In this document: positions 4,715-31,006 of the stretch, one piece after another
Numbering within the stretch: the stretch's first letter is position 1
Layout of the letters: each line of letters starts with the position of its first letter
From: Acaryochloris marina MBIC11017
GTDB taxonomy: Bacteria; Cyanobacteriota; Cyanobacteriia; Thermosynechococcales; Thermosynechococcaceae
Assembly: GCF_000018105.1 (NCBI RefSeq)
Contig: NC_009927.1
Span: forward strand, 90,001-122,000
Direction: 5' to 3'
DNA length: 32,000 nucleotides
Notes under the pieces: generated by a model
Seen by the model: the letters and a program-made list of their open reading frames with translations, nothing else
Databases searched by the model: none
Told to the model about the DNA's origin: nothing
Made by a program: the position numbers and the translations under genes

Positions 4715-4744
4715 GGATAGACTTGCTGCCAGCAGGATTTTAAT

Positions 4745-10771: not shown

Positions 10772-11140
10772 GCCAGCCCGAGTTGCAGCCGCCTATATCA
10801 AGTTATGAACTGTGAGTTTGACCCATTTGCAATTTCTAACGGAACGCTCTCCACCAGGTATGGGTGGAGTTGCCCGCAGTACAGGGCGAATTGTAGCGTC
10901 TTTCCCATGTTGGAGGGACTGCCTCAGGTGTCTCCTTTTCATAACGGTTGGAGACACTATCTCTTTCTAGCTGGTTCTTTAGAAATTGAAGAAATCAGTG
11001 TCAATCCCATGCCTCTATAGCGTAGGGTGGTTCTTTTATAGCGATCCAATTTAATTCGTGAAAATATTTTGGAGTGAATCTACTGGTTAGCAAGGATTTG
11101 AGCCTCAGTATACTTAGAACAAATCAAACCAGATTGCTAT

Positions 11141-11461
11141 ATGTTAGAACTGACCACAATCAAGCAAACAGCCCTCGATTATCTCTTGTCCCATCTGGAA
11201 GTATTTCCAGAACATTGTCAATTGTTTGAGGTCGTTGGTGCAACTTGTTTTGATAATCACGAGTGGATGATCAACATTAGTGTAGTCGGTTTAGTTGGTA
11301 AATATTGGAATGTCTTTGTTGATGGCAACACGGGAAAAATTTCACAAGACTGCGAGTTTTATACAGATTGCCCAGACTTGAATAAGCCCCATCAATATGC
11401 CCATCTGCCAGACTATTTAAATCAACTGCTCGATCGCCAGACTGCAAAAGTTTCTAAGTAA
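11141..11461 (+). CDS. Hypothetical protein
   Basis: 106-aa ORF just upstream of priA with no recognised motif. NVFVDGNTGKI is faintly PepSY-like. Confidence 0.4.
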   Translation: MLELTTIKQTALDYLLSHLEVFPEHCQLFEVVGATCFDNHEWMINISVVGLVGKYWNVFVDGNTGKISQDCEFYTDCPDLNKPHQYAHLPDYLNQLLDRQTAKVSK

Positions 11462-11497
11462 ATGAAACACAAACAATAATCTCCTGGGTGCGCCAAT

Positions 11498-13046: not shown

Positions 13047-14431
13047 GGCTCTCCGGGAATTAGCGTGGTAGCCGCTAGATATAGTGTTTAGGTCACAGCG
13101 AATGTCTGATACCCATTGAGGTCAAGAGAAATCCTTTGGAAGAGTCTTTCAATATCGAAAATACCGTAGCATCGTCTTTTTAAGACTTTGACTCGGTTAT
13201 TAAATCCTTCCACAAAACCACTGGTCCACCCCTCCAGGAAATAGTTGGTCATCTCGTCCATCCAATTATTGATAGTGGTCAGAAAACAATCGAATTCCTT
13301 GATGTCACTCTTGAGTACTTGTTTACACCAAGCACGGATGGCACATTTAGCTCCGTGCTTGGTGTACCTGCCCTCAAATATCTGCGTGAGTTTCTCTCGG
13401 AGGTTGTACGCCTGTTTCAGTTGTGGAGAATAAGCAAACAATCGCTCAAGGAGTTGTTGCTCTGACTCTTTCAGATTCTCTGGTCGTTTTCTAAAAGGCC
13501 ACATCGCGCCTTTGATGCTGTCATACTCTTGCTTAGAGAGCTCTCGTCGTAGACGTTTGACCTCACGTTTACGAACCGTATCAGCACAATTACGATAGGC
13601 TTTGGTCACATGAAAGCGGTCAATGACAATTTTGGCTTGCGGCAATTGTTCTCGGACTGCACTGACAAATCCTTGGTACATGTCCGTACAGACGCGCTCA
13701 ATGGTTTGGCGTAAATCAATGGGAATCGATTGAAGGAAATTTGCCACTGTCTGCTGTTTACGGTCGGCTAGAACTGCCAATATATCCACCCCATCCGTCG
13801 TAGGAATCGTGATCAAAACCACAAAATCACGATGGCCTCGTTTGAGAGAAATCTCATCCATCCCCATAACTTTGAGGTCTGCATATTCGCTCCAGTCAAC
13901 TTGAGCGGCAATCCAACGATCAATGATTCCACTGACGATATCCTCACTAACGCCTAGTTTTCTGGCAACATCTGAGACCGTTGAATTGATCAAGATTCGC
14001 AGAAGCCAACGCTCATATGCTTTTGTATTGGGACTGCGAGGTTCGTGCCATTCTAAATGTTGAGTTGTTGTGGGATGGTCATCGCAATACTTGCATCGAT
14101 AACGCTTGGGCCGAATTTCTAAGTAAACGGGGACTTCAAATAATGGCAGGTGACGAATCCGAAAAGGCTGATCATGACAATGGAGGTCAGTAATCTCACG
14201 TCCGCATTGATGACAGGTTGTTCCTTGAAGCGTACTCTCAATCTTGATGAGCCAATCCCCTCTCTCAGTCTTCGATAGCTCTAGAACTCGAATATCAGGA
14301 AGGTTGAGCGGGATGCGAATTGAGTTATCCATTACGCCATTGCTCTGAAGTACTACCTCAGATCATTCCATAGGGATGAAAAAGGAAACACACTAAATGT
14401 AGGACTGCTACACGCTAATTCCCAGAGAGCC
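13047..14431 (-). mobile_element. ISL3-family insertion sequence (1385 bp)
   Basis: The left inverted repeat GGCTCTCCGGGAATTAGCGTGGTAGC (13047..13072) matches the reverse complement of the right end, GGCTCTCTGGGAATTAGCGTGTAGC (14407..14431). It has a single transposase ORF and an 8-bp direct repeat. Terminal GGCTCT is typical of ISL3. Confidence 0.9.
13088..14332 (-). CDS. ISL3 family transposase
   Basis: 414 aa. N-terminal zinc finger CHQCG...CKYC and the characteristic C-terminal WTSGFVEGFNNRVKVLKRRCYGIFD. Confidence 0.9.
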   Translation of the reverse strand: MDNSIRIPLNLPDIRVLELSKTERGDWLIKIESTLQGTTCHQCGREITDLHCHDQPFRIRHLPLFEVPVYLEIRPKRYRCKYCDDHPTTTQHLEWHEPRSPNTKAYERWLLRILINSTVSDVARKLGVSEDIVSGIIDRWIAAQVDWSEYADLKVMGMDEISLKRGHRDFVVLITIPTTDGVDILAVLADRKQQTVANFLQSIPIDLRQTIERVCTDMYQGFVSAVREQLPQAKIVIDRFHVTKAYRNCADTVRKREVKRLRRELSKQEYDSIKGAMWPFRKRPENLKESEQQLLERLFAYSPQLKQAYNLREKLTQIFEGRYTKHGAKCAIRAWCKQVLKSDIKEFDCFLTTINNWMDEMTNYFLEGWTSGFVEGFNNRVKVLKRRCYGIFDIERLFQRISLDLNGYQTFAVT

Positions 14432-14439
14432 ATTATTTA
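14432..14439. repeat. Target-site duplication ATTATTTA (right)
   Basis: See 13039..13046. Confidence 0.85.
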
Positions 14440-15383
14440 TGCCTCGTCGAGGCCATAGCACTTTTGTCTCTTGCCGCAGTTGTGGTTATGTCGCTGAATG
14501 TCCTCACTGCAGCATTTCTATGACCTACCACCATAGCCCTGATTCCCGTCAAACTCTGTTGCGATGCCATTATTGCAACTACACTCAGCCCCAACCGCAA
14601 GCTTGTCCTGTCTGCAAGTCCTCTTACTTCCGATTTTTTGGAAGTGGGACCCAGCGAGTCATGCAGGAATTAGACAAAACGTTTCCCGAATTGCGAGTGA
14701 TTCGCTTTGATAGTGACACCACTCGTCGGAAAGGAGCCCATCGTCAGCTTCTAAATCAGTTTGCCCGTGGCCAGGCAGACCTAATGGTTGGTACACAAAT
14801 GCTCACTAAAGGAATTGATTTACCCCAAGTTCAATTAATTGGCGTTTTGGCTGCAGATAGCTTACTCAATATTCCCGATTTTCGGGCCAGTGAACGCACC
14901 TTTCAGACCCTGCTACAAGTGGCAGGACGCGCAGGTCGTGGGGAGCATCCTGGCCAAGTAATCCTACAAACCTATGCTCCGGAACACCCCGTCATTCAGG
15001 CCGTTCAACAATATTCAATGAATACCTTTCTCATCAATGAACTCAAGCAGCGCCGGGAAGCCAATTATCCGCCCTTCCAACAACTAATCCTCCTACGCAT
15101 CAGTGGTCTCAATGAAACGATGGTTGAGAATACTGCCCTAGATATTGCCAATTACCTAAAGGCTTATATCCAATTACATCGCTATGAGGGCAGTATTCTC
15201 GGTCCTGCTCCCGCTAGTATTTTGAGAGTAGCCCGACGATATTATTGGCATGTGTTAGTTAAACGCCCCCAGGCTAAACTGGGCCAGTCTGAACACTGGC
15301 CGTTTCCCAGACAAGAATGCCAACAACGGTGTCCACAAAATTTACGTCTTCAAATTGATGTCGATCCTTTGAAGCTCCTCTAA
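14440..15383 (+). pseudogene. priA: PriA, 3' portion (Cys-rich zinc region and C-terminal domain)
   Basis: Removing 13047..14439 joins ...QQGLLF to MPRRGHSTFVSCRSCGYVAECPHCS... in frame, giving 2493 nt or 830 aa. The ATG at 14439 in the ORF track is recreated by the last base of the target duplication. Confidence 0.85.
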
Positions 15384-15425
15384 TCCCATCCATTCAGATC
15401 AATACAAAAGCGGGCTTAGTTCAAA

Positions 15426-15593
15426 TTATGAACTGCATCGACAACCCGTATGTCCACAACCCGAGCCTGAGGGATGTCCATCTGCACAGGCTTGGCCACA
15501 AAAATACTGACCGCCTTTTTGAATCGCATCACTAATCGTCACGATGCAAAGACAAGACTCGCAAGCACATTTCATTTGAGTAACGGTTGCCAT
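15426..15593 (-). CDS. smtA: SmtA/BmtA-type bacterial metallothionein (55 aa; below the ORF-track size cutoff)
   Basis: Manual translation: MATVTQMKCACESCLCIVTISDAIQKGGQYFCGQACADGHPSGSGCGHTGCRCSS. It matches the SmtA pattern KCACE.CLC....AI...G.Y.C..ACADGH..GS.GCGHTGC.C. Confidence 0.85.
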   Translation of the reverse strand: MATVTQMKCACESCLCIVTISDAIQKGGQYFCGQACADGHPSGSGCGHTGCRCSS

Positions 15594-15616
15594 TGCAAAC
15601 CTCCATAACTAAATAT

Positions 15617-15632
15617 ATGAACAATCATTCAT
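15617..15632. promoter_or_regulatory. Candidate SmtB operator ATGAA-CAATCA-TTCAT
   Basis: Inverted repeat with a TGAACA/ATTCA core in the smtA-smtB divergent spacer. It resembles the TGAA..TTCA repeats of smt/ArsR operators. A weaker second site, TGAATAACTGCTCA, is at 15651..15664. Confidence 0.4.
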
Positions 15633-15746
15633 GCTTCACAGCCTAACATATGAATAACTGCTCAAGTATTAAAATGTCATTAGTAATGTATGCAGAAAGC
15701 CATCTAGAGTTGATTATCTTAGGGTCAAGCCACCTTCAGTCATGTT

Positions 15747-16118
15747 ATGTCGCACTCTCACCTTGATATCAGCACTCATTCCTTGTCGGAGAAACCCCGG
15801 TCAGAGAAGCCGGTGGTCGATCAAATTTTGTCTTTTGAAAAGGCACAGCGGATGGCTGAATTTTTAGGCGTATTGAGCGACCCTAATCGTTGGAGAATCT
15901 TATCGGCTCTTGCCATTGAAGAAATGCGGGTGGGAGAGTTAGCGGCAGCAGTTGAGATGTCAGAATCAGCCGTGTCCCATCAACTGAGAGTCCTCAGGAA
16001 TACACGAATGGTTCGCCGCCGTAAATGTGGACGAACCGTGATTTACGGATTAAAAGACCACCATATTTTTAATCTTTACCGAGATGTCTCAGAACATTTG
16101 GACGAGGCGGACTATTGA
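15747..16118 (+). CDS. smtB: ArsR/SmtB family metal-sensing repressor
   Basis: 123 aa. LSDPNRWRIL, ESAVSHQLRVLRN HTH and the alpha5-type ligand pattern LKDHHIFNLYRDVSEHLDE resemble SmtB ([20 protein letters not shown]). Divergent from smtA. Confidence 0.85.
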   Translation: MSHSHLDISTHSLSEKPRSEKPVVDQILSFEKAQRMAEFLGVLSDPNRWRILSALAIEEMRVGELAAAVEMSESAVSHQLRVLRNTRMVRRRKCGRTVIYGLKDHHIFNLYRDVSEHLDEADY

Positions 16119-16310
16119 ACTTCGAGAACAATTGGGGTAGAACAAGGATTGCTTAAATGAAGGGTCATAGAATCCCAAACAACATCTTAAGGTCCTGTCC
16201 AATGTTTGTGTATTGACAGATTAGCCCCTTGAGAGCTTTACTCACTTCTCAAACAGCCTCTAAGTTGAGACTGACTTTCTGCCTGTAAAAAATCCGTGGA
16301 CTGCCATTTT

Positions 16311-18191
16311 TTAAGCTCGGGGCATACTTCTTGCTACGCTGTCTAGGTCTCCCTCTAAAAATTTGGATCTACAGGTAAATCGCTGAATCTTTCCACTAGA
16401 AGTTTTGGGGATACTACCGGGCTTGAGCAGCCAAAGGGCATGGATGTGCAAATCATGCTCTTTGGCAACCGCCCGACGAATTTGAGTGAGTATATCTTTT
16501 TCGACGGTAGTAGGTTCTGAATCGGCAGTTAAGGATGTGGGCGAGACAAAATCATTGAGCTGAGGAGGCTGAGAGGATGGCTTCTTACCGTTTTTCCGAT
16601 AGCGATTGATATAGTTTCTTTCCAGTTCTGCCACCACTATTAGCCGCTCTTCCCCCGCTTCAGTAATCGAAAATGCAGCGGCACAATTGGGGCGAATACC
16701 GGGATAGCTTTGAACCACAGTCCACTCAATATCCTGAGGATAATGATTACGGCCATTGACAATAATCACGTCCTTGAGGCGGCCGGTGACATAAAGTTCA
16801 GAGCCGACCAAAAAGCCATAGTCCCCTGTTCTTAAAAAGGGGCCTGCGCCTGTATCTGCCAAATGGGCCTGAAAGGTTTCCTCAGATACATCTGATTGTC
16901 CCCAATACCCTTGAGCAATACTTTCCCCAGACACCCAAATCTCGCCGACTTCTTCTGACGAGCATTGCTGCAGAGTTTCAGGATTAGCGATCACGATTTC
17001 TTGGTCTTGAAGGGAAGTGCCGCAGCCCACTAGGGTGCGGGCATTGACATCATTGGCCTGGGCCGAGACCACATGATGCTGTTCTAAGGCAGTCCCTTGG
17101 ACCGTTTTGAGGGCGGGTTGGGCATCCGGTTGGCCCCCGGCCACGATTAGAGTGGCTTCGGCAAGACCATAACAAGGAAAAAAGGCTTCTGACCGAAATC
17201 CATAAGGAGCAAATTTAGTGGCAAAGTCTTCAAGGGTCTGGGCACTGATGGGTTCTGCTCCATTAAAGGCCACCCGCCAGGAACTCAGATCCAGTCCTTG
17301 GAGCTGTTCCGGCTTTATTTTTCGCAAGCATAAATCATAGGCGAAATTGGGTCCGCCGCTGGTGGTTCCTTGATAGCGGGAAATGGCTTGGAGCCAGCGA
17401 ATGGGGCTCTGGAAAAACATAAATGGGGACATCAGAACCATGGGAAATCCCCCGTATAAAGGCTGCAAAATCCCGCCAATTAGACCCATATCATGGTAGG
17501 GCGGTAGCCAAATCACCGCTAGGCTCTGGGAACTATGCTCAAAGCATTGATGAATCAAGGATAAATTCTTTAAAAGATTGTGATGAGTAATCATCACCCC
17601 TTTGGGCGTTGCGGTTGAACCAGAGGTGTATTGAAGAAAGGCTAAATCTTGCCCCTGAGGATGAGTCTCTTGCCAGGCTTGGCGGGGTTCCGTAACGCTG
17701 AGGCTATCTGTTGCTAGCCACTTAAGCGCTCTCAATTCTGGAGTATCAATCAGCCGTCGCTCTAATTTCGACAGAATTTGAGAGGTGGTAAGGGCAAAAA
17801 TGGCTTGGGAATCCGCGATGACGCTCTGCAAACGCATCAAGGAGCGATTCGGGCGGGGGGGATAGATGGGAACTGCCGTAACGCCTGCATAGAGGCAGCC
17901 AAAGAAGGCAGCCACATACTCTAACCCAGGCTGATAGACCAATAGGGCTCGATCGCCGGGGTGGCAGGCTAACTGTAGTGCTGCTGCGATCGCACGGGCC
18001 TTGATATCCAACTCTGCATAGGTGAAATGGAGGGCTTCTTCCTCTCCATCAACCAGAAAGGTAATCCCCCTCCGATCCGGCTGGTAAGCAGCTCGATAAC
18101 GGAGCAAATCCACCAAACTTTCCACCTTCGGTGGATCCGATTCTTCGATCTTAGTGTCCCAATTTGTTGTTTTAGCCACGTTGTACTCCAT
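16311..18191 (-). CDS. Fatty acyl-AMP ligase / AMP-dependent synthetase
   Basis: The LQYTSGSTATPKGVMITHHNL AMP-binding motif, YGLAEATL, GDYGF and SSGKIQR fit a FAAL-like N-terminus and length. I chose the start at MEYNVAKT (complement 18189..18191); the ORF-track start at 18278 is also possible. Confidence 0.85.
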   Translation of the reverse strand: MEYNVAKTTNWDTKIEESDPPKVESLVDLLRYRAAYQPDRRGITFLVDGEEEALHFTYAELDIKARAIAAALQLACHPGDRALLVYQPGLEYVAAFFGCLYAGVTAVPIYPPRPNRSLMRLQSVIADSQAIFALTTSQILSKLERRLIDTPELRALKWLATDSLSVTEPRQAWQETHPQGQDLAFLQYTSGSTATPKGVMITHHNLLKNLSLIHQCFEHSSQSLAVIWLPPYHDMGLIGGILQPLYGGFPMVLMSPFMFFQSPIRWLQAISRYQGTTSGGPNFAYDLCLRKIKPEQLQGLDLSSWRVAFNGAEPISAQTLEDFATKFAPYGFRSEAFFPCYGLAEATLIVAGGQPDAQPALKTVQGTALEQHHVVSAQANDVNARTLVGCGTSLQDQEIVIANPETLQQCSSEEVGEIWVSGESIAQGYWGQSDVSEETFQAHLADTGAGPFLRTGDYGFLVGSELYVTGRLKDVIIVNGRNHYPQDIEWTVVQSYPGIRPNCAAAFSITEAGEERLIVVAELERNYINRYRKNGKKPSSQPPQLNDFVSPTSLTADSEPTTVEKDILTQIRRAVAKEHDLHIHALWLLKPGSIPKTSSGKIQRFTCRSKFLEGDLDSVARSMPRA

Positions 18192-18582: not shown

Positions 18583-19629
18583 TTAAGCAGAAATCGCTTC
18601 AGTAATATGATGGGAGTCCAGTCCTTGGCCGATAAACACTAGTTGAGTCAGACGGGGTTCGCTAGTTTGCCATAGCCGATCATAAAATTGGTCAAAGCGT
18701 TGCCCCACTCCATGGAGCACCAACCGCATAGCTTTATTGGGAACGGCGACGAAGCCCTTGATCCGATAAATTTCTTGCTGCTGTACCAAGACTTGCAACC
18801 GTTCGATCAGTGTGTTCGGGTCAAAGGTCTGCTCCAACTCTACGCAGATGGAGTTGATGTTGTCATCGTGATCATGGTCTTCTTCCTGATCATGATGGCT
18901 GGGGCGGCTATCGAGATTATCTTCTACAGCTGCGTTGAAACCGAGCAGAATATCTGGGCTAATTTGACCGTGATGGCAGGGAACAACTTTGACACCTGAC
19001 GGAGTCTGTTGCTGCAGCCACTGTTGGATGCGGCTACATGTATCCTCCCCCTGTATCACATCGGTTTTGGCCAGTAGTACCATATCCGCACAGGCTAATT
19101 GATCCTCAAACAGTTCCTCTATTGGGGTTTCATGTTCTAAACTGTCATCTGCCTGTCGCTGGGTGTTCAGGGCATCCAGATTGCTGACGATACGCCCCTG
19201 AGCCAGCGCATCTCCGTCCACCACTGTCACCACCCCATCTACCGTAGCTCCCGTGCGGATCTCAGGCCTGCGAAACGCTTGCACCAAAGGCTTGGGCAGG
19301 GCTAACCCCGAGGTTTCAATCACAATGCAGTCAATCTCATCGCGTCGCTTCAATAGTTCCTGCATGGTGGGCAAAAACTCTTCCTGAACTGTGCAGCAGA
19401 GGCAACCATTGGCCAGTTCAACGATATTGGGGCCAGAGCCGTTAGGAGTCTCCTCGTCGTTGCACACCTGGCATGACCTCAGCAGTTCGCCATCAATGCC
19501 CACTTCGCCAAACTCGTTCACTAACACGGCAATGCGACGCCCCTGGTTGTTTTGCAGTAGATGCCGCACCAGAGTGGTTTTGCCTGAACCGAGAAAGCCA
19601 GTGACCACAGTAACGGGAATTTTGTGCAT
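18583..19629 (-). CDS. cobW: COG0523 GTPase, CobW-like, with a His/Asp-rich stretch
   Basis: I place the start at MHKIPVTVVTGFLGSGKTT (complement 19627..19629). GCLCCT motif, ETSGLALP, AKTD and SHHDQEEDHDHDD are present. It lies immediately downstream of a DUF1636-like gene, the usual CobW context. Confidence 0.8.
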   Translation of the reverse strand: MHKIPVTVVTGFLGSGKTTLVRHLLQNNQGRRIAVLVNEFGEVGIDGELLRSCQVCNDEETPNGSGPNIVELANGCLCCTVQEEFLPTMQELLKRRDEIDCIVIETSGLALPKPLVQAFRRPEIRTGATVDGVVTVVDGDALAQGRIVSNLDALNTQRQADDSLEHETPIEELFEDQLACADMVLLAKTDVIQGEDTCSRIQQWLQQQTPSGVKVVPCHHGQISPDILLGFNAAVEDNLDSRPSHHDQEEDHDHDDNINSICVELEQTFDPNTLIERLQVLVQQQEIYRIKGFVAVPNKAMRLVLHGVGQRFDQFYDRLWQTSEPRLTQLVFIGQGLDSHHITEAISA

Positions 19630-19687
19630 GGATGAGAATCCTTTGATGAAAAGACAAACTTTATTTAATTCGATAGAAGCTGAATCA

Positions 19688-20095
19688 TCAGCGGGTGGGG
19701 GCATCAGTAGGGAGCGGCGGCAGGATAAACGCAGTGGCCTCTCGAACCAAGTTCGGACGTTCCGAGTAGGGGACTTTACCATCGGGAGAAGTGGCGTATT
19801 GCTGGCAAAATACTGCAACCGCCTTAGCTCCCTCTGTCGGTGATATCTGACTGAGGATAAAGGTCAATTTACCGGGAGCGGCAAGGCTAACGTTGCAAGG
19901 GTGGCTGCACCCCGCCATACAGCGCAATGGTTCTAACCGAACCGTATCTTGTAGATTGCAGGCTTCGAGTGCCTGGTGGAGTTGGTTAATCAGGTATTGG
20001 CCTCCCGAAATACCGTCCCGACAGGCTTCATCCTTAGAGAATCGACATAGTGAGCAGACAAATAATGTGGTTTGGGTCATGGGCTGAGATTGCAT
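19688..20095 (-). CDS. DUF1636-like predicted metal-binding protein
   Basis: 135 aa. LFVCSLCRFS...RCMAGCSHPCNVSL is the Cys pattern I associate with DUF1636 proteins found next to cobW. Confidence 0.65.
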   Translation of the reverse strand: MQSQPMTQTTLFVCSLCRFSKDEACRDGISGGQYLINQLHQALEACNLQDTVRLEPLRCMAGCSHPCNVSLAAPGKLTFILSQISPTEGAKAVAVFCQQYATSPDGKVPYSERPNLVREATAFILPPLPTDAPTR

Positions 20096-22708: not shown

Positions 22709-23166
22709 ATGGATGCTATTCAACGGGTTATTGATCGCGCAGAGCGGCGCTGTAAAGAAAATAGCTCGCGTTTAACTAAAAAAAGAAAACTAGCGCTATC
22801 ACTGTTACTTAAATCGGGCAAAGCACTCTCTGCTTATGAATTAGTGGAGACTTATAAAACTGCATTGGGTGACACCATGCCTGCCATGTCTATGTATCGA
22901 ATTTTAGAGTTTTTAATGGCAGAGAACTTAGTGCATCGCCTTGATCTGATCAATAAGTATGTTGCTTGCGAACATATTAAGTGCGAGCACGCGCATGCTC
23001 AGACGCAATTTTTAATCTGCGGTCAGTGCCAAAAAGTTAAGGAAGTCACGATAAGCGCATCAATTATGGATGTGCTAAAGAAAAACACTAGCGATGCAGG
23101 CTTCCCCTTGCGAGCCCACAATTAGAAATGAACTGTATATGCGAGGATTGTATGTCAACAGGATAG
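22709..23166 (+). pseudogene. Second copy of the E. coli-type Zur-like gene, frameshifted before the C-terminal CxxC
   Basis: It shows 9 aa substitutions over the first ~131 aa relative to 8087..8572. Where copy 1 has TTTCATCTT this copy has TTCCCCTT, one base fewer, which gives GFPLRAHN*. The shifted frame still reads ASPQLEMNCICEDCMSTG*. Confidence 0.7.
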
Positions 23167-23229: not shown

Positions 23230-24720
23230 TTAGTGCCGATGCCAACGGGTAGCTCCATCTGGTTGATCAACCACTGTAATCCCCGCTGCCGATAGTTGAG
23301 CGCGAATATCATCTGCAGTTATAAAGTCTCGCTGTTTTCGGGCTGTTTGTCGCTGCTGAATTAGATCAGTTATTACAGCCTCATCTAATTTGCCAGTTGC
23401 TTCATCCGTATCACTGTTGACTTTAGCTTCTAAACCCAATACCTGGGCCAGATACAATAATGTTTGCCACTGCTGCCAGAGCAGCTCCGGACTGGACTGG
23501 GACTTGCCTTCATGTACCAGACGGTTCCCCTCTCTCTGCAGCGCTTTGGCAAGTTCAAACAGCACTGCCAGAGCCCCCGATGTGTTCAGATCATCATCCA
23601 TTGCGGATTGAAACCGTTTGGTCCATGGGTCTTCTGAACTGGGTTCCTGAGGTGAAGACTGGATGCTAGCAAATGGCGACGACAATGCTACTCGGTGACG
23701 GTTGCCAAAGAGAATTCCGGCTTTTAACGTCTGCCAACTATTGATCGAAGCCACGATCGCATCTTTTGTAAAATCAAGCGGTTTCCTATAGTGCCCCTGC
23801 AACACAAACAGTCGCACCGCCATTGGATCTACCGGCTCCGGATAGTCTGCCCAACCTCCATCTAGCAGGTCACGAATCGTGGTGAAATTGCCTAGGGATT
23901 TCGACATTTTTTCCCCATTCACCGTTACCATCCCATTGTGCAGCCAGTAGCGAGCGAGCGGCTGTCCGGTCAGCACTTCTGATTGAGCAATCTCGTTTTC
24001 ATGGTGAGGAAACACTAGATCACCACCACCTCCATGAATGTCAATGGTTTCGCCCAATCGCGCCCGGATCATGGCCGAGCATTCGATGTGCCAACCGGGT
24101 CTTCCTAGTCCCCAGGGCGATTCCCAGGCAGGTTCACCAGGTTTTGCAGATTTCCACAAGGCAAAATCAAACGGATCGCGCTTCTTCTGGTCTTGAGTAT
24201 CATCGGCAACTCGTCCTCCTGCACCTACCTTCAGTTGCTCAAGCTTACGACCAGAGAGCTTTCCATACTCCGAAAATTGCCGCACGCTATAGTAAACATC
24301 GCCATCGATCGCATAAGCGTAGCCTTGCTGTTCTAGTGCCTGGATCAATTGATGAATTGCAGGAATGTGCTCTGTCACACGGGGATAGTCATCAGCATCT
24401 AGAATATTGAGTCGGCGAATATCACGAAAATAGGCATTAATATAGCGATCGCTCACCTCCTGCATCGTTATGCCCTCTACTATGGCGCGATGGAGAATCT
24501 TGTCGTCAATATCTGTAAAATTCTGCACATAGCGCACTGTGTATCCACACCACTTTAAATAGCGCCGCAGCACATCCCAAGCCATGTACGAACGAGCATG
24601 CCCTAAATGACAATTGTCATATACCGTCACGCCACAGCAATACATCACCACTCGTTCTGGGTGAACGGAGATAAATGGCTCTTTTTGATTGGTGAGAGTG
24701 TTGTGAAGAGTAAGGTTCAT
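23230..24720 (-). CDS. cysS: Cysteine--tRNA ligase
   Basis: 496 aa. [20 protein letters not shown] (HIGH), KMSKSLGN (KMSKS), HIECSAM and FPHHENE, which correspond to the positions of the E. coli Zn ligands C28/C209/H234/E238. Confidence 0.92.
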
Positions 24721-24790
24721 GCAAAATACTTTTAACTAAAAACACTGATAGGGGCGCAATAGGGAATCTGGTCAGACCCAGTGCTATGAG

Positions 24791-24802
24791 AATGATTATC
24801 AT
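24791..24802. promoter_or_regulatory. Zur-box core AATGATTATCAT in the cysS promoter region
   Basis: The first 12 nt of the shared 18-mer. It lies 71-82 nt upstream of the cysS ATG, just downstream of a TAGTAT -10-like hexamer on the cysS strand (complement 24805..24810). Confidence 0.5.
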
Positions 24803-25456: not shown

Positions 25457-26680
25457 ATGGCGGACCACCGTGAACTTGCAAGGGATATGGACTTGTTTCA
25501 CTTTGAAGAGCATAGTCCAGGAATGGTGTTTTGGCACCCACAGGGACTGCGGCTTTTTCGCAGCATTGAAGACTTCATGCGGCAAGTTTATCAAGGGCAT
25601 GGATTTGAAGAAGTGCGATCGCCCATAGCACTTAATAGATCGCTATGGGAGCGCTCAAGGCATTGGGAAAAATTTCGTCAGGGAATGTTTGTTGTTGGCA
25701 GCGTAGAGGCAGATATAGACGATGAATCAGCCCTATCCGTCATCAGCCCTGACTATGCGTTGAAGCCCATGTCATGCCCTGCCCATATTGCTATTTATCA
25801 GTCCCGCAAGCGCAGCTATCGGGAAAATCCCATGCGATTGATGGAGTTTGGCATCTGTCATCGCAACGAACTGTCTGGCACATTATCGGGGTGTATGCGG
25901 CTGCGGCAATTTGTCCAGGATGATGCTCATATCTTCTGCCGAGCATCTGATGTGCAGCGTGAAATTAGCAATTTCCTCAATATGGTGCAGCAGGTTTATG
26001 TTGCTTTTGGCTATGACCAATTTTCCCTACAAATATCACTTAGACCAGAGCAACGGCTTGGCTCAGATCATCTCTGGGATCAGGCTGAGTCTGTGTTAGT
26101 TAAAGCGGTTCAATCTTTGGGGCATAGTTATAAATTAGCTCCAAATGAAGGGGCATTCTATGGCCCCAAGCTCGAAATTAGTTTGCAAGATCAGTTGGGG
26201 AGATCGTGGCAGTGTGGCACAATTCAAGTCGATTTCAATCTGCCTCAAGTGTTTGAGCTAGCTTTTGTAAATGAATTGGGAGAATTGGAGCGTCCCGTCA
26301 TGCTGCACCAGGCGATTTTGGGGTCGCTAGAGCGCTGGATTGGCATTTTGTTAGAGCATCACAGCGGTGCCCTCCCCATTTGGGCTGCTCCTACACAAGT
26401 CGCAGTCGCCTCTATTTCTAATAAAGCATCTGCCTGGGCAGAAACAATTTTCTTTCGACTCAGGCAACTGGGGGCTAGGGTAGAACTTCACAACCAAAAC
26501 CGCACAATCAGCAAGAAAATTCGTGGACTCTCTAAACGCAAAATTCCATTGATTGCCATTGTGGGTGAGCAGGAAGCCATGAGTCAAAGGTTAAATCTTC
26601 GGTGTTTAGGGGCTCTAAAACAACAAGAAATGAGCCTAGCTGAACTTGAGCAAAAGTTAGCTGATCTTTCTATGCCGTAG
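25457..26680 (+). CDS. thrS: Threonine--tRNA ligase paralogue lacking the N-terminal TGS/editing domains (T2-like)
   Basis: 407 aa starting MADHRELARDMDLFHFEEHSPGMVFWHPQG, which aligns with the start of the E. coli ThrRS catalytic core ([26 protein letters not shown]). AGGAG lies 7 nt upstream. Zn-ligand contexts MSCPAH, QDDAHIFC and HQAILGS are retained, and the anticodon-binding domain is present. Confidence 0.9.
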   Translation: MADHRELARDMDLFHFEEHSPGMVFWHPQGLRLFRSIEDFMRQVYQGHGFEEVRSPIALNRSLWERSRHWEKFRQGMFVVGSVEADIDDESALSVISPDYALKPMSCPAHIAIYQSRKRSYRENPMRLMEFGICHRNELSGTLSGCMRLRQFVQDDAHIFCRASDVQREISNFLNMVQQVYVAFGYDQFSLQISLRPEQRLGSDHLWDQAESVLVKAVQSLGHSYKLAPNEGAFYGPKLEISLQDQLGRSWQCGTIQVDFNLPQVFELAFVNELGELERPVMLHQAILGSLERWIGILLEHHSGALPIWAAPTQVAVASISNKASAWAETIFFRLRQLGARVELHNQNRTISKKIRGLSKRKIPLIAIVGEQEAMSQRLNLRCLGALKQQEMSLAELEQKLADLSMP

Positions 26681-26880
26681 CGAGTTTTTTCCCAGAAGTT
26701 GAAGATGTACGCTCGCAGGCTAAATCTACGGCGGAGCAGACGGATGGGAGAACTTGGTGGGGGGCCAAGATGATCTGCTGCTGCTTACCTTCACCATTAT
26801 CGGTGTTTTCATCACGTCGTTCAACACCTTCAAATAAGAAGCAATGAGTTGATGCCGCATCGACACCAAGCCAAGAATTG

Positions 26881-26911
26881 GCTGAAACAGCCAATTCTTG
26901 GTCACGAGAAG
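26881..26911. other. Perfect 14-bp stem / 3-nt loop hairpin
   Basis: CCAAGAATTGGCTG-aaa-CAGCCAATTCTTGG, about 200 nt downstream of the thrS stop, with no U-tract. It shares the CCAAGAA...TTCTTGG ends with the hairpin at 21212. Confidence 0.55.
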
Positions 26912-27168
26912 TATGACTTGCCCAATTGCCCAGCGTTTAAGTGGACAGACTCCCTACTAAACACTTTTCCCTTCAAAAAGAAAGTTCACTTGAATTTAAT
27001 TTTGGGAAGGCTAAAGGTAGGACAGCAGTTCTGTACCTTTTTCCGAATGAAATCCTAGTCAAATTAAATAGCTTTTTCTATTAATCTCACAGCTTAAATC
27101 AGGTTCTTCCCTTTTCAATAAAACTGGAAGATTAAAAGGTTCCCACGATTCCCAATCAGGAGCTGCAT

Positions 27169-28101
27169 GTGCCTCAGCCCAAGGACCAACTCCCCAAAAT
27201 TCGGATTGGTGAGCTTCTTCTCCAGAAGGGATATCTTAATCCGACACAACTGAGACAAGCCTTAAACCTCCAACGTGGGAGTAAGCAGAAACTGGGAGAA
27301 GTTTTAATTCAGCAAGGTCTGATTAGTCAGGATCAACTCCAGCAAGGCCTAATCGAGCAACGATGGCGAAACTTGGTCACGTCAGTATTATTCTCGGTTA
27401 GTACGTTTGCGCCCAATCTACCGCAACTAACCTCTAGCGTAGAGACGCAAACAACCCTGGTGCAGAGCATGCGTAAACCTACCATAGAACTCATTGTTGA
27501 TGACGACATTAAAAGGGTTCACGCCAAGAAAGGGTATGGAGGAATTTCTACCCAGTCAGGACCTTCTAATACCAGAACGTTGTTTGCTTCTGCCACTCCT
27601 CTCCCTCAAAAGCCGACTGTAGATGATCCCTTGAGAGGTTTTTGTCATCCATTGAATGGTGAGGGGTGGTTAAGCCAGGGAATTCGGGGCAGAACCCACC
27701 AAGGTCGGATGGAGTATGCCTATGATCTAGCAATAAAGATTGGCACTCCCATCTATGCCATGAGGGCTGGTAAAGTGCTCGCACTAAGGGATAAATACCC
27801 TGATACGGGCGGTGGGAAAGAAAATGCAACTCGCTCTAATTTCATTTGGCTTGAGCATGAAGATGGATATCGGTCTATCTATGTCCACCTGCAGCAAGGC
27901 TTTAAGTCAAAAGTGAATCTCAAAGCCGGAGATTTTGTCGAAAAAGGTCAACTCATTGGTTACAGTGGGAACTCCGGTTGGAGTACCGGCCCTCACTTAC
28001 ATATTGAAGTGCAGAAACCGAGTCCTAGAAAACGGTTTACGAACTCAGTCCCTTTCGCTATTTCAGGTACCTGTAAAGATACCCCAATCGCTGACCAATA
28101 G
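27169..28101 (+). CDS. M23 (LytM-type) metallopeptidase with an N-terminal MshEN-like tandem motif
   Basis: GTG start as given in the ORF track. The N-terminus reads RIGELLLQKGYLNPTQLRQALNLQ-RGSKQ-KLGEVLIQQGLISQDQLQQGLIEQ. The C-terminus has THQGRMEYAYDLAIKIGTPIYAMRAGKV and GNSGWSTGPHLHIEV, the H...D and HxH M23 motifs. Confidence 0.8.
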   Translation: MPQPKDQLPKIRIGELLLQKGYLNPTQLRQALNLQRGSKQKLGEVLIQQGLISQDQLQQGLIEQRWRNLVTSVLFSVSTFAPNLPQLTSSVETQTTLVQSMRKPTIELIVDDDIKRVHAKKGYGGISTQSGPSNTRTLFASATPLPQKPTVDDPLRGFCHPLNGEGWLSQGIRGRTHQGRMEYAYDLAIKIGTPIYAMRAGKVLALRDKYPDTGGGKENATRSNFIWLEHEDGYRSIYVHLQQGFKSKVNLKAGDFVEKGQLIGYSGNSGWSTGPHLHIEVQKPSPRKRFTNSVPFAISGTCKDTPIADQ

Positions 28102-28191
28102 CTTAAATTACCTCTGTCTCTGCCGGAGGCTTATTATGGTTCACCCCTCAAGGGGGCAGGGGAATAACCCCCAAGGGGCAACTCTCTAACA

Positions 28192-28335
28192 TCAACATAA
28201 AGGCAGGTTCAGCTGCTCCAAGCGAGCATTTTCTAGCTCCTGATTGCGAATATATCCTTGAACCACCGCTTCATCCAAACCCACTACCGAAACATAGTAA
28301 CCTCGCGCCCAAAAGCTCTCTCCTGAATAAGTTCG
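28192..28335 (-). mobile_element. Relic of an IS200/IS605-type TnpA (C-terminal ~47 codons only)
   Basis: The reverse strand reads RTYSGESFWARGYYVSVVGLDEAVVQGYIRNQELENARLEQLNLPLC*. W.RGY.V..VG.....V..YI.NQE is the usual TnpA (Y1) C-terminus. There is no start codon or N-terminal part. GC-rich mini-hairpins lie nearby at 28143..28178. Confidence 0.5.
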
Positions 28336-29526
28336 TCACTGAAACTCTAATTCGTCGATTCGTTGGAGAAGAATATAAACTTCTTTACCCGGATGTAAAA
28401 CGATGGCTTGCTGTCCTTGGAACCAAAGATCTTGAACAATAAAGTATCTGCCACGTCGTCCCAGAATCTGATAAACCTTATATCTTTCCGGTTCAGCAAT
28501 GACAATCTGCTCACCAACTTGAATCATTGGAAATTCTTTTGGGGGAACAGCGCCCATCGGTAAATTCATTACCCAGTTGTGCCAACACCTCCAGCTTTCT
28601 CGAACTCCAAAAGGCACAGTTATATAGTCTTCATGCTCCCCTGTATCCTTGGCTAGTCGCCTTATAAATTCGTTGAACTCAGGAAGCGCATGCAACTCTA
28701 AAGGCATGAAGTGTTTATCTGTGGGGATACGGAACACATACCAATCCCCTGACTTCCGGTGGTCATTGATCTCTTGCCAATAGAGGTCTGTGAATACAGG
28801 AGCATCGCTTCCAGGATTCCGGTATTCAGTGCAGAATTGTTCTGCAAGTTCTTGGGTAATGAAGCTGTTCTTCTTATCTCTCATGAGAGAGTGTTGAGCA
28901 ACTTCCCTGGCGTCCATGTCAATGAGTCTTATTAGTTGAGCCTCATGCGTTTCGGCTATCTGACTATAGTTGATTTGCTCATGAACACCCGGCTCTAAAA
29001 GCGGAACCTCATACGGTTCATTCAACGATGGATCATAGCAAGGATCGTTGTTATCAAACTGGGGCTCAATCTCTTCCTGGCTTAATCGACAATTGATTCG
29101 GTGTTGATGAAGCACCATCTCCCATACCGTTAAACGACCAGATGGAATGGCTGAATCATAAGCCGATGAATACATAGCATTGTGTTGATTTTGCATATGC
29201 TCGATCACTGTCTCAATATCCCCTTGGGTCAGGGTTCCCTCAGCTTCAGTGGGTTCATCAATGTGGTGTAGCGCCGGATAATAACCAATCAATTGACCGT
29301 TATCGATCACGTTGAAGTTGATACCCATCCGGCTTGCTTCATTGATCCGATGAACCAACTCATTTATGTGATGGAGAATGCGATCTTCTGCATTCTCCAT
29401 GGCTTGGCGTAACCCCTCATCCATTGGCATCCGATAGAGCTGGTTCTGGTGGGCCATGGCCATCACATGGGCGAAGCCGCTGCAGTTGTTTGGAGGAAGT
29501 AGGTGCTGGCAAAGTCGAAGAAGCAA
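28336..29526 (-). CDS. Hypothetical His/Asp/Glu-rich protein, function unknown
   Basis: 396-aa ORF with alternative starts at M22/M24 (around 29463). It has no transmembrane segment or signal peptide and no motif I recognise. Several His pairs are present (LHHINELVH, ALHHIDEP, HMQNQH, LHQH). Divergent from folE across the 27-nt palindrome. Confidence 0.6.
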   Translation of the reverse strand: MLLRLCQHLLPPNNCSGFAHVMAMAHQNQLYRMPMDEGLRQAMENAEDRILHHINELVHRINEASRMGINFNVIDNGQLIGYYPALHHIDEPTEAEGTLTQGDIETVIEHMQNQHNAMYSSAYDSAIPSGRLTVWEMVLHQHRINCRLSQEEIEPQFDNNDPCYDPSLNEPYEVPLLEPGVHEQINYSQIAETHEAQLIRLIDMDAREVAQHSLMRDKKNSFITQELAEQFCTEYRNPGSDAPVFTDLYWQEINDHRKSGDWYVFRIPTDKHFMPLELHALPEFNEFIRRLAKDTGEHEDYITVPFGVRESWRCWHNWVMNLPMGAVPPKEFPMIQVGEQIVIAEPERYKVYQILGRRGRYFIVQDLWFQGQQAIVLHPGKEVYILLQRIDELEFQ

Positions 29527-29563
29527 TAGACATAAAGGTTTGAAGGGGTAGATAAAAGGTTGC

Positions 29564-29590
29564 CAATGATAATGATTATCATTATCATTG
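29564..29590. promoter_or_regulatory. 27-nt perfect palindrome, Zur-box-like (CAATGATAATGAT-T-ATCATTATCATTG)
   Basis: All 13 symmetric pairs were checked by hand. It contains the shared 18-mer (29571..29588) and TGATAATGATTATCA. It lies 38 nt from the longest start of the 396-aa ORF and 81 nt from the folE ATG. Confidence 0.75.
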
Positions 29591-29670
29591 TCTTTGACCT
29601 AGTTTGCTTTTGGATTGAAGCCGACTGGATCTCGAAGTGCCCCTTATTCCGTTCCGCGTTAGGAGTTTCT

Positions 29671-30303
29671 ATGACTGTGCCTTCCATCCCGACCTTTGTC
29701 CCTGCGCTTACCACTGAAGCTCAGCCCATCGTCTCGGAGGCCGAAATGCAGGCCGCCGTTCGTACGTTGTTGCTGGGCTTGGGTGAAGATCCCGATCGCG
29801 AAGGCCTCCGAGATACTCCTAAGCGAATGGTTAAAGCCTTAAAATTTCTGACTTCGGGTTATCAGCAATCCCTCGATGAATTGCTGAATGGGGCCATCTT
29901 CCCCGAAGACCTAGATGAAATGGTCTTGGTGCGTGATATTGATCTCTTTAGTTCCTGCGAACATCATATTTGGCCCATTATTGGCAAAGTCCATGTGGCC
30001 TATATCCCTAATGGCAAAGTGATTGGCCTGTCAAAAATCGCCCGCATCTGTGAGATGTATGCTCGGCGACTGCAGGTACAAGAACGGTTAACAGCTCAAA
30101 TTGCTGATGCCTTGCAGGGCCTCCTAAACCCCCAAGGGGTGGCTGTAGTTGTAGAAGCAAGCCATATGTGTATGGTGATGCGAGGGGTGCAAAAACCCGG
30201 ATCTTGGACTTCGACCAGTGCGATGCGAGGCGTGTTTTCCAGTGATTCTCGCACTCGCCAAGAATTTTTTAACCTGATCTCCCATTCACCAGCAAGTCGC
30301 TAG
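29671..30303 (+). CDS. folE: GTP cyclohydrolase I (FolE, type IA)
   Basis: I place the start at MTVPSIPTF with AGGAG 6 nt upstream; the ORF-track start at 29560 would translate the palindrome. [33 protein letters not shown] and [10 protein letters not shown] are canonical FolE motifs and include the Zn-ligand Cys/His. Confidence 0.9.
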
Positions 30304-30446
30304 TTACGGCTTCAGCCGGTCAGCACCGGGCTTTTGGGGGAGTGGTAAAAATACTCTGCTGAACCATCTCTCGTTCTTTAGGATTTTGTGGAGTGAATTG
30401 CTCAAATCCTTTTCAAAACTTTGTTCTGTAGTATATAGAGTCCATA

Positions 30447-30920
30447 ATGCCCTCACTCAATTCCTTCGTTCCCTTTACAAAGATTTGTCGAGCGATTGCC
30501 CCGGTCGCTGCTCTATGCTCAGTATTTGGGACGGTATTGGGCCAAGCAGCCCCCAGTCACGCTGTCACGCCGAGGTCACTCTTGACACCGTCGTTAATTC
30601 AGTCAATACCAATCACCACCTCTGTTGCAGAAGCCGTAAACCGGGTGCGTGGGGTTGAGCCCAAATTCTGTTGCCATATGCTGGCGTTAGCTATTGACGA
30701 GATCCTTGAGGATCCCCGTTTTGAAACAGCCCAGTGGGGCATTGTTGTTGAATCCATTACTGGGCCAACGGTTCTCTACCAACACAATTGAGATCGCGCC
30801 CTGATTCCGGCTTCGAATACCAAGCTGCTGACAACAATTGCTGCCATTAATGTCGTCAGCAATCGGGTTCCTGAAATGCCACTTTTCCAATTGCACTCAA
30901 CGTCTGAACGGTTTTGTTAA
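30447..30920 (+). pseudogene. D-Ala-D-Ala carboxypeptidase/endopeptidase (PBP4/DacB-like) remnant with an in-frame stop and a 3' truncation
   Basis: A signal-like N-terminus is followed by AQWGIVVESITGPTVLYQHN, then TGA (30789..30791), then in frame DRALIPASNTKLLTTIAA, which is the SxxK active-site box. The frame ends at 30920, leaving about 157 codons against the 450 or more expected. Confidence 0.6.
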
Positions 30921-31006
30921 ACCTTATTCGCCAAAAACTGATACTCCGGTGTTTACAGCTTTACTCTGGCTCCAGAAAGAGAAACTCCCCGTTTCGGCGG
31001 AGGCTG

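Follow-up and report, generated by a model that had tools for sequence, protein, structure and literature searches.

The 27-nt palindrome that separates folE from a divergently oriented open reading frame (ORF) in this DNA of an Acaryochloris marina plasmid, probably pREB2, is predicted to be a genuine Zur operator before a zinc-starvation-type folE, and we conclude that the locus as a whole is an ordinary Zur/folE-II locus accompanied by a dispensable orphan neighbour. It is plausible, from the arrangement of the sequence, that the ORF shares this operator with folE. Our preferred reading, held with moderate confidence, is that the ORF is an accessory gene that is co-repressed by Zur simply by way of the common intergenic region and that has no metal-buffering role. 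The window (the whole stretch of 32,000 nucleotides analysed here, to which all positions refer) carries a zinc-starvation island around folE, which includes two COG0523 genes, five Fur-family genes, a short thrS whose product is without the N-terminal part of ThrRS, a boxed cysS, M23 peptidase genes and bmtA/smtB. None of the five Fur-family paralogues of the window reaches the curated equivalog cut-off. An M23 peptidase gene adjoins the ORF.

The predicted operator and the divergent promoter-like elements

The region between the two genes contains a double box and, on either strand, a set of promoter-like hexamers.

29567-29581 and 29573-29587, no strand: double Zur-type box, two overlapping 7-1-7 sites with an offset of 6 bp
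29560..29588, plus strand: folE promoter-like hexamers, TTGCCA-17 nt-TATCAT, 10/12 matches, overlapped by the palindrome
29566..29594, minus strand: weaker ORF promoter-like hexamers, AAGACA-17 nt-TATCAT, 9/12 matches, overlapped by the palindrome

Positions 29564-29590 form a perfect palindrome of 27 nt, CAATGATAATGATTATCATTATCATTG, with arms of 13 nt that are 100% complementary about a centre of 1 nt; the coordinates, the perfect symmetry and the flanking divergent gene pair given in an earlier note on this DNA are all confirmed. The same note had suggested that the palindrome could hold two overlapping boxes, and it does indeed consist of two overlapping copies of TGATAATnATTATCA, the form of the cyanobacterial Zur box, one of them exact and the other with one mismatch. 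When inverted repeats are required to be perfect, with arms no shorter than 13 nt and a spacer no longer than 3 nt, the window contains two, against a mean of 0.005 in 200 shuffles. The core 15-mer, TGATAATGATTATCA, has 14 strand/offset matches in the window at up to three mismatches, against an expectation of 1.28, and none of 100 shuffles reaches 14.

3343-3363, 4743-4763, 24787-24801 and 29567-29587: the four sites that match TGATAATGATTATCA in the window scan with up to three mismatches
3593-4714: FAD/NAD(P) oxidoreductase gene with its own Zur-type box at 4743-4763

The palindrome at 29564-29590 is the best copy of the operator motif that recurs at these four sites, and its earlier description as the strongest operator-like site of the window holds in this sense, although a longer perfect hairpin palindrome is present at 26871-26901 (14+3+14 nt). 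An Acaryochloris MAG keeps the box as a 25-nt palindrome. The minus strand of the palindrome also contains an exact 19-bp sequence, GATAATGATAATCATTATC, that we take to be the classical Fur box. The exact 15-mer also occurs in six publications on other organisms.

In cyanobacteria the motif is assigned to Zur because predicted sites of this form, with which the palindrome agrees, sit upstream of znuA, COG0523 and folE (Haas 2009, Additional file 5), and because of its position before Zur-controlled units of Synechococcus (Picosynechococcus) sp. PCC 7002. On plasmid pAQ7 of the latter, two transcription units are derepressed in a zur mutant and by TPEN (PMC4628125), and the motif stands directly before both, at hemB-II and at the gene of an FAD protein. 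In Gloeocapsopsis it occurs in the DUF1636/COG0523 region and upstream of cysS. On these grounds the designation of the palindrome as a Zur-type operator stands.

We propose that the palindrome would act as a double Zur operator covering the -35 and -10 elements of the plasmid-borne folE-II promoter. Under zinc sufficiency, Zur dimers carrying Zn would bind at both of the overlapping 7-1-7 boxes and shut off the folE promoter, as inferred by orthology, and since the box is symmetrical the same dimers would block the weaker divergent promoter of the ORF too, to judge by position only. It is unlikely, in our view, that the box controls folE only and that the ORF is read from a separate promoter situated downstream of the box or is scarcely expressed. 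The box lies just 38 nt from the candidate TTG start of the ORF, or 101 nt from its ATG, with no further promoter-like site from the box to the ORF start, and an RNA polymerase starting upstream would need to cross a Zur-occupied site. Nevertheless, the ORF-side -35 element (AAGACA) is weak and is not kept in the MAG, whereas that of folE reads TTGCCA in the window and TTGACA in the MAG, and the -10 element of the ORF strand (TATCAT) follows automatically from the symmetry of the palindrome. A precedent also exists in PCC 7002, where G0129 and G0130, the latter an orphan without homologues, lie inside the Zur cluster and are not derepressed in the zur mutant (PMC4628125), and where, by an inferred mapping of locus tags, an orphan on the minus strand and the induced gene of the FAD protein are separated by 101 bp that contain a Zur box. 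Rfam assigned no family to the folE-ORF region, its only match in the window being a cobalamin riboswitch elsewhere.

A canonical FolE on the plus strand

29671-30303, plus strand: folE, canonical GTP cyclohydrolase I (PF01227, TIGR00063), orthologue of the cyanobacterial Zur-regulated folE-II

The plus-strand partner was earlier identified as a canonical FolE retaining its Zn-ligand motifs (CEHH, SHMCM) and distinct from the FolE2 type, and both parts of this identification proved correct. The protein scores above the cut-offs of PF01227 (2.1e-75, 252.5 bits) and TIGR00063 (268.5 bits, cut-off 181.6), and both C96-E-H-H99 and H165-M-C167 are present. C96, H99 and C167, which we take to be the Zn ligands from their identities in E. 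coli FolE, are invariant in an alignment of the window FolE with the PCC 7002 and Gloeocapsopsis proteins. Searches of Pfam and NCBIfam gave no match of the FolE2/GCYH-IB (COG1469) type, the Pfam matches being confined to GTP_cyclohydroI and a weak QueF. A canonical FolE that bears Zn ligands and stands behind Zur control is already known for the cyanobacterial 'folE-II' genes.

The orphan gene and its product

28336-29463, minus strand: orphan protein-coding gene, ~375 aa from the ATG at 29463 or 373 aa from the ATG at 29457, product of ~44 kDa

The length of 396 aa reported earlier is that of the maximal ORF, 28336-29526 on the minus strand, which begins with a TTG at 29526; database gene calls instead give 375, 373, 362 or 354 aa, from the ATG at 29463, that at 29457 or others further downstream. 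The ORF is a real coding sequence with host-like codon usage, with a score of +0.153 bits per codon in its own frame and of -0.39 and -0.33 in the other frames, on par with the bona fide genes of the window in all three thirds. We reject a spurious non-coding frame in view of this gene-like codon usage and of a remote homologue at the protein level. In its 373-aa form the product contains 19 His (5.1%) and 4 Cys, the His being scattered with two HH pairs as their sole clusters, and has a pI of 5.0, a GRAVY of -0.58 and a maximum 19-residue Kyte-Doolittle hydropathy of 0.59. The earlier characterization as soluble, acidic and His-rich is therefore borne out for solubility and acidity, but His is only mildly enriched. 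The product contains no clustered or conserved His/Cys motif of the metallothionein, Hpn-like or COG0523 His-stretch kind.

No domain had been recognised in this protein from the sequence, and none emerged here: Pfam gave a best match of 0.057, below the cut-off, NCBIfam, PHROGs and PADLOC gave no match, and comparison with the PDB by sequence reached E ~2 only. Pfam searches with three sub-segments of the ORF, and with the remote homologue P0009 described below, were equally empty. The structural check proposed in the earlier note was of little help, as AlphaFold returned a low-confidence model (pLDDT 36 from the single sequence, 40 from a 5-sequence alignment) in which only residues ~200-280 reach a pLDDT of 60-79, and Foldseek found no meaningful match to it in the PDB (best E 0.95, TM-score normalised by query length at most 0.12). 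In the model the N-terminal part is made of helices, the central domain is of the alpha/beta kind and the C-terminus is rich in beta structure. Neither internal repeats nor paralogues of the ORF were found within the window. Searches of PHROGs, PADLOC and IMG/VR were empty and lend no support to a phage or defence-system origin.

Distribution and a remote homologue

The ORF has an extremely narrow distribution. When 5.8 billion proteins were searched through a word index, using both the protein and a profile as query, nothing appeared besides the cluster of the ORF itself, a single fragment and P0009. Of 1.84 billion representatives scanned in full with HMMER three matched, namely two Acaryochloris fragments and again P0009. 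The GTDB genome scan yielded one Acaryochloris MAG, JGI metagenomes and IMG/VR yielded no match, and tblastn against a plasmid collection located the ORF only on two plasmids of MBIC10699, besides one chance match. A. marina S15 and 'Moss Beach' are also represented by plasmids in this collection, and the ORF was found on none of them.

28627..29052, minus strand: central domain of the ORF product, residues ~136-277 of the 373-aa form, the part matched by P0009 (tblastn coordinates)

P0009, the only remote homologue, is a stand-alone protein of 157 aa from a 1.2-kb metagenome contig (Logan SRR20820731). It matches the ORF product with E = 5.6e-12 in the scan of 1.84 billion proteins and 8e-21 in BLASTP, and is 31-37% identical to residues 136-277, without the N- and C-terminal regions. 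This central domain is both the sole segment of the ORF for which AlphaFold reaches a pLDDT of 60-79 and the sole part with a remote homologue; it shares with P0009 the motifs QFCxEYRNPGxDxPVFxD and WYVFRxP, and H189 and C209 are the only His and Cys of the ORF that are identical in the alignment. P0009 itself matches no known family in the libraries searched. Its gene lies downstream of a gene of the hydrogenase-maturation type, whose best plasmid match is to Acaryochloris at 50.6% identity, and no Zur box is visible upstream of it on the 1.2-kb contig. P0009 shows that the central domain has been under protein-level selection over long time scales. By these searches the ORF is a species- or Acaryochloris-restricted orphan with one partial, stand-alone relative in a related cyanobacterium.

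Copies of the ORF and their decay

Three independent copies of the ORF can be compared, those of the window, the Acaryochloris MAG and MBIC10699 pREC2; the copy on MBIC10699 pREC1 is 100% identical to that of the window and thus provides no independent evidence of maintenance. Two of the three are pseudogenes. The MAG copy has lost 11 nt at one place and gained 1 nt at another, and a GAA codon in it has become the stop codon TAA; that of pREC2, a paralogue which a 6.8-kb insertion separates from the box and folE, has deletions of 15 nt and 1 nt.

29531..29538, no strand: window counterpart of the 8-bp target that is duplicated at the pREC2 insertion (query positions 83-90 flank 10523-17364 (L002) on both sides)

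Between copies the dN/dS of the ORF is 0.63-0.70 (about 0.65), against 0.079 for the folE control between window and MAG, and substitutions at the three codon positions number 17/24/23 and 4/13/8, without third-position excess, against 6/5/42 in folE. For the intact copy this dN/dS argument is weaker because the other two copies are broken, and the 13 changes on the branch leading to it (5 synonymous, 8 nonsynonymous) are too few for a test of selection. Between window and MAG the DNA of the ORF has diverged by 5.2% and the flanking non-coding DNA by 11.8% (p = 1e-4), a difference that could reflect some constraint or a recent recombination. Taken together, the ORF behaves among the Acaryochloris copies as a gene that evolves under no detectable constraint at the protein level and that was inactivated on two independent occasions.

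The linkage of the ORF to the Zur box is seen in the window, in the identical pREC1 copy and in the MAG, all from Acaryochloris, and is broken in pREC2. Part of this pattern is consistent with the view that the ORF encodes a novel zinc-starvation effector, repressed by Zur and with a specific role at low zinc, be it as a partner or activator of FolE-II or the M23 peptidase, as a zinc-independent enzyme substitute or as a metal buffer. The ORF has a perfect double Zur box in common with folE-II and promoter-like elements on its own strand, the ORF-box-folE arrangement is kept in a second Acaryochloris lineage (that of the MAG), the M23-ORF-box-folE block was duplicated onto pREC2 as one unit, and it is the pREC2 ORF, severed from its box, that is broken there; the lower divergence of the ORF relative to its flanks and an acidic product with above-average His content point the same way. 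We nonetheless regard such an effector as distinctly improbable. No homologue of the ORF occurs in other cyanobacterial zinc islands that share the folE-II, cysS and COG0523 set, nor on the other plasmids of the collection (A. marina S15 and 'Moss Beach' included), and its relative P0009 stands alone without an adjacent Zur box. The preponderance of pseudogenes and the absence of a third-position excess argue against it as well, as does the lack of a metal-binding motif. The His residues are conserved neither between copies, H53 and H88 having been replaced in the MAG (H53Y, H88Y), nor, H189 apart, with P0009. The proposal of the earlier note that the ORF is a candidate zinc-starvation protein (a metal buffer, a chaperone client or an enzyme replacement) thus has nothing beyond position in its favour, given two broken copies out of three, unconserved His and no detected constraint.

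A more specific version, to which we attach slightly less credence still, would have the ORF product as a Zur-repressed protein representing a new fold and family that arose in the Acaryochloris lineage and acting in zinc starvation, for example with FolE-II or the M23 endopeptidase. If this were true, the QFCxEYRNPGxDxPVF and WYVFRxP motifs of the central domain would define a new small cyanobacterial domain family, and the low nucleotide divergence of the ORF against its flanks would reflect real constraint. Least probable of all is that the intact window copy too is a dead remnant, no longer under selection and open only for want of time, for although a dN/dS of ~0.65 with substitutions even over codon positions in all comparisons, the 5 synonymous and 8 nonsynonymous changes of the window branch, the independent loss of the two other copies and the identity with pREC1 would all fit, its codon usage equals that of bona fide window genes across all three thirds, its 1.1-kb frame is still open and its DNA has diverged less than the non-coding DNA around it. 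Under the preferred reading of an accessory gene co-repressed through the common intergenic region, the ORF would be a dispensable passenger of the island, with a cytoplasmic product of ~44 kDa, and not a core component of the zinc response.

Significance

The regulatory half of the locus provides a clean example of a known theme of cyanobacterial plasmid zinc-starvation islands, in which extra copies of zinc-dependent enzymes (FolE, ThrRS, CysRS, COG0523, M23 peptidases) are placed behind Zur boxes. The product of the ORF would matter only if it were proven to be a new zinc-starvation effector, and because of its narrow distribution, repeated decay, lack of a metal motif and the example of an unregulated orphan in PCC 7002, the ORF makes a poor choice for follow-up next to the conserved genes of the island. 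The locus also serves as a caution that adjacency to an operator is by itself a poor ground for assigning function.

Comparison with known systems

The closest known parallel is the hemB-II/folE-II/G0131-G0132 cluster on pAQ7 of PCC 7002, which is experimentally Zur-regulated (Ludwig et al. 2015, PMC4628125). Both loci have a plasmid-borne folE paralogue of the canonical family, the FolE proteins being 78% identical (77% at the nucleotide level), and in pAQ7 each induced unit is closely preceded by a TGATAATnATTATCA box of the same form. An FAD/NAD(P) oxidoreductase gene with a box, as in one of these units, is also present in the window (3593-4714). The pAQ7 cluster likewise includes orphan genes without homologues. 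The two differ in that folE-II of PCC 7002 lies behind hemB-II in an operon, without a box of its own, whereas the window has a perfect double site of 27 nt placed between two divergent genes. The orphans of PCC 7002 have been shown to be unresponsive to zur deletion and are unrelated in sequence to the window ORF, for which comparison with the unannotated proteins of that cluster gave no similarity.

In Anabaena sp. PCC 7120 the Zur (FurB) regulon includes all4725-all4721 with hemB2, thrS2, COG0523 and folE (Napolitano et al. 2012 via PMC6103462). These represent the same zinc-sparing paralogues as in the window (a short ThrRS without the N-terminal part, COG0523 and FolE), and Zur sites that overlap promoters are described there, with overlapping double sites at all3515 (PMC6103462). 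Conversely, the Anabaena genes are chromosomal and form an operon, and a counterpart of the ORF is neither reported nor detectable in Anabaena. Finally, the palindrome is like the classical Fur-type 7-1-7 box TGATAATnATTATCA in sequence, a motif that is attributed to Zur in cyanobacteria.

Results

The 27-nt perfect palindrome CAATGATAATGATTATCATTATCATTG (29564-29590), whose 13-nt arms flank a 1-nt centre with 100% complementarity, lies between folE and a long divergent ORF; this factual core of the earlier note, namely the palindrome with its exact coordinates, the identity of FolE and the minus-strand frame, was found as described.

29671-30303, plus strand: folE, a canonical GTP cyclohydrolase I retaining its Cys/His/Cys zinc ligands, as had been proposed
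28336-29526, minus strand: the ORF, as the maximal frame with a TTG start

The window holds two perfect inverted repeats whose arms reach 13 nt or more, against a mean of 0.005 per window after shuffling. The palindrome is built from two 15-bp 7-1-7 sites that overlap with an offset of 6 bp: TGATAATGATTATCA and a copy with one mismatch. Searching the window for this motif with up to three mismatches gave 14 strand/offset matches at four places where 1.28 were expected, a number attained in none of 100 shuffles.

Sites of the 7-1-7 motif in the window
3343-3363: in front of a Fur-family gene, at 53 nt
4743-4763: in front of an FAD oxidoreductase gene, about 29 nt before its likely start
24787-24801: in front of cysS, at 67 nt
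29567-29587: the folE/ORF intergenic palindrome

Because the minus strand of the palindrome also contains the classical 19-bp Fur-box consensus, its assignment to Zur needed checking. The same core is present in sites predicted for cyanobacterial Zur in front of znuA, COG0523 and folE genes, for example at Nostoc all1751, tAggTGATAATGATTATCcgTaT (Haas 2009, Additional file 5). In 10.5 kb of pAQ7, a plasmid of Synechococcus sp. PCC 7002, there are exactly two occurrences of the motif; one precedes hemB-II by 10 nt and the other an FAD-protein gene by 22 nt. The folE-II of pAQ7 is 77% (nucleotide) and 78% (amino acid) identical to the window folE. The chelator TPEN induces folE-II, hemB-II and G0131-G0132, and all of these are derepressed in a zur (A2498) mutant (PMC4628125). 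The window itself is a zinc-starvation island by gene content, with two COG0523 genes, a ThrRS lacking its N-terminal third, a boxed cysS, M23 metallopeptidases, bmtA/smtB and five Fur-family genes; on a Gloeocapsopsis dulcis plasmid the same boxes accompany DUF1636, COG0523, folE, hisI and cysS. The predicted Zur box at the palindrome is well supported by these three lines, and the proposal of a Zur operator is upheld by the core shared with predicted sites and with the pAQ7 boxes of zur-responsive units.

Promoter-like matches lie inside the palindrome on both sides, TTGCCA-17-TATCAT towards folE and AAGACA-17-TATCAT towards the ORF. The ORF-side -10 follows automatically from the symmetry, and the -35 on that side is weak and differs in the copy from an Acaryochloris metagenome-assembled genome (MAG), in which the folE-side -35 is a perfect TTGACA. 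From this comparison, predicted Zur repression of folE is well supported by analogy, and that of the ORF is plausible from position only; the operator may be common to both genes.

The ORF is a real coding sequence. Its codon score, using the window's own codon usage, is +0.153 bits per codon in its own frame and -0.39 and -0.33 in the two others, a signal that holds in all three thirds and equals that of cysS, thrS and other bona fide genes, and its GC1/GC2/GC3 profile is typical. The previously given length of 396 aa applies to the maximal TTG-started frame; gene callers place the start at ATG 29463, 29457 or later, giving 375, 373, 362 or 354 aa. The product is acidic and soluble as described (pI 5.0, hydrophilic, no membrane segment), but 'His-rich' was an overstatement, since histidine makes up 5.1% of residues and forms no clusters.

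Sequence searches of Pfam (also with sub-segments of the ORF), NCBIfam, PHROGs, PADLOC and the PDB gave no match, in agreement with the earlier failure to recognize a domain. Among 5.8 billion proteins, a word-indexed search detected nothing other than the ORF itself. Three hits came from an exhaustive HMMER scan of 1.84 billion representatives, two of them Acaryochloris fragments and the third a remote relative, P0009; repeating the word-indexed search with a profile including P0009 gave no further relatives. The one Acaryochloris MAG was the sole addition when GTDB genomes, JGI metagenomes and IMG/VR were scanned, and the 90% cluster of the protein holds Acaryochloris marina entries exclusively. 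By these comparisons the ORF lies outside every described family. P0009 is a stand-alone 157-aa protein, 31-37% identical to ORF residues 136-277, with QFCxEYRNPGxDxPVFxD and WYVFRxP as common motifs. Its 1.2-kb contig shows no Zur box upstream, and the best plasmid match of the neighbour gene is an Acaryochloris hydrogenase-maturation gene (50.6% identity). AlphaFold models of the ORF are unreliable (pLDDT 36 and 40, with only residues ~200-280 reaching 60-79), and Foldseek with this low-confidence model found no match.

Within Acaryochloris, window positions 27000-31000 are 99.4% identical to plasmid pREC1 of strain MBIC10699, the counterpart of MBIC11017 plasmid pREB2 (PMC9324425), and the ORF with its upstream region is 100% identical over 1285 nt. 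Window and pREC1 were therefore counted once, leaving three independent copies.

Independent copies of the ORF
Window (identical in pREC1): intact
pREC2 (MBIC10699): 15-nt deletion and 1-nt frameshift; annotated as 318-aa and 79-aa fragments
MAG: 11-nt deletion after the ATG, GAA-to-TAA nonsense change, 1-nt insertion

The MAG retains the folE-box-ORF arrangement. On pREC2, onto which the M23 gene 27169-28101 was co-duplicated with the ORF, a 6.8-kb insertion at the site equivalent to window 29531-29538 parts the ORF from box and folE; it is bordered by an 8-bp duplication and carries a transposase fragment with TetR, SDR and AraC genes. By tblastn against a plasmid collection, no copy was found on the A. 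marina S15 and 'Moss Beach' plasmids.

Substitution patterns (changes at codon positions 1/2/3)
ORF, window versus pREC2: dN/dS 0.70; 4/13/8
ORF, window versus MAG: dN/dS 0.63; 17/24/23
folE, window versus MAG: dN/dS 0.079; 6/5/42

Polarized on the three-taxon tree, the intact branch carries five synonymous and eight nonsynonymous changes, too few to demonstrate constraint. Between window and MAG the ORF (28339-29463) differs at 5.2% of sites, about half the 11.8% of flanking non-coding DNA (p = 1e-4), and at four-fold sites by 7.8%, about a third of the 26% in folE; no codon-position pattern was seen in the ORF differences. The simplest explanation would be that the segment recombined recently between plasmid lineages and then drifted, although the low divergence may also reflect a chimeric MAG assembly or constraint at the nucleotide level. 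The pattern suggests a mosaic or recombinant history of the block containing the ORF.

Several observations concern the neighbouring genes. The five Fur-family genes lie within 23 kb (2889-3290, minus; 5101-5529, plus; 5683-6108, minus; 8087-8572, plus; 22709-23125, plus); two are closest to the Zur model, one is PerR-like, one Fur-like and one ambiguous, none of the five reaching a curated equivalog cut-off. The double Zur-type box 3343-3363 is 53 nt upstream of the ambiguous gene, 2889-3290, suggesting that this gene is autoregulated. The plasmid-borne cysS paralogue (23230-24720, minus) stands behind box 24787-24801, and the Gloeocapsopsis plasmid likewise has cysS at 8093-9553 and a box at 7959-7973, a pattern suggesting that a zinc-starvation CysRS paralogue, analogous to the known ThrRS T2, is conserved. 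The short thrS (25457-26680, plus; 407 aa in RefSeq), whose match to the thrS model is confined to positions 165-561, may correspond to the Anabaena zinc-starvation ThrRS T2; it has no Zur-type box immediately in front of it, the closest being ~660 nt off, by cysS. Between thrS and the M23 gene is a perfect 14+3+14 hairpin, CCAAGAATTGGCTG AAA CAGCCAATTCTTGG (26871-26901), longer than the Zur palindrome, without a T-run and without a second copy in the window. The M23 metallopeptidase (27169-28101, plus), convergent with the ORF, carries an MshEN-type cyclic-di-GMP-binding motif at its N-terminus (NF053729, 2.8e-15); Zur-regulated M23 endopeptidases are known from other bacteria. Downstream of folE, a 114-aa ORF (30447-30791, plus) represents only the N-terminal part of a PBP4-type D-Ala-D-Ala carboxypeptidase, intact in the MAG (343 aa, at 1273-2304); in the window and pREC1 a second M23 gene (~31007 to beyond 32000, plus) separates it from the rest of dacB. 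A cobalamin riboswitch (RF00174, 21366-21508, minus; 63.8 bits) precedes a minus-strand block reaching DUF1636 and the cobW-annotated COG0523 gene (18583-19818), a copy probably linked to B12 or cobalt rather than zinc. A 55-aa Cys-rich BmtA/SmtA-type metallothionein gene (15426-15593, minus) is divergent from an ArsR/SmtB-family regulator (15747-16118, plus), a pair already noted on pREB2 (Barnett et al. 2012), and an ISL3-family transposase divides the priA helicase gene into an N-terminal and a C-terminal ORF (11498-13063, plus; 13088-14332, minus; 14439-15383, plus).

Discussion

The ORF is a real orphan gene restricted to Acaryochloris and decaying in its other copies, and nothing marks it as a metal protein or as important to the zinc response. 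Of its histidines and cysteines P0009 shares just H189 and C209, and His-to-Tyr changes separate the ORF copies, which argues against a His-based metal site. The suggestion of a zinc-starvation metal protein is not supported.

The Zur/folE part is an additional instance of an arrangement already known; the locus is familiar in kind, and the ORF matches no described family and has relatives only in Acaryochloris and P0009. In the Zur cluster of PCC 7002, G0129 and G0130 do not respond to zur deletion, and G0130 is an orphan 'with no homologs in other organisms' (PMC4628125). On pAQ7 a minus-strand orphan, by our inferred locus-tag mapping, is divergent from the induced FAD-protein gene across a 101-bp gap that holds a Zur box. 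Unrelated to the window ORF, the PCC 7002 orphans are a precedent against reading function from position.
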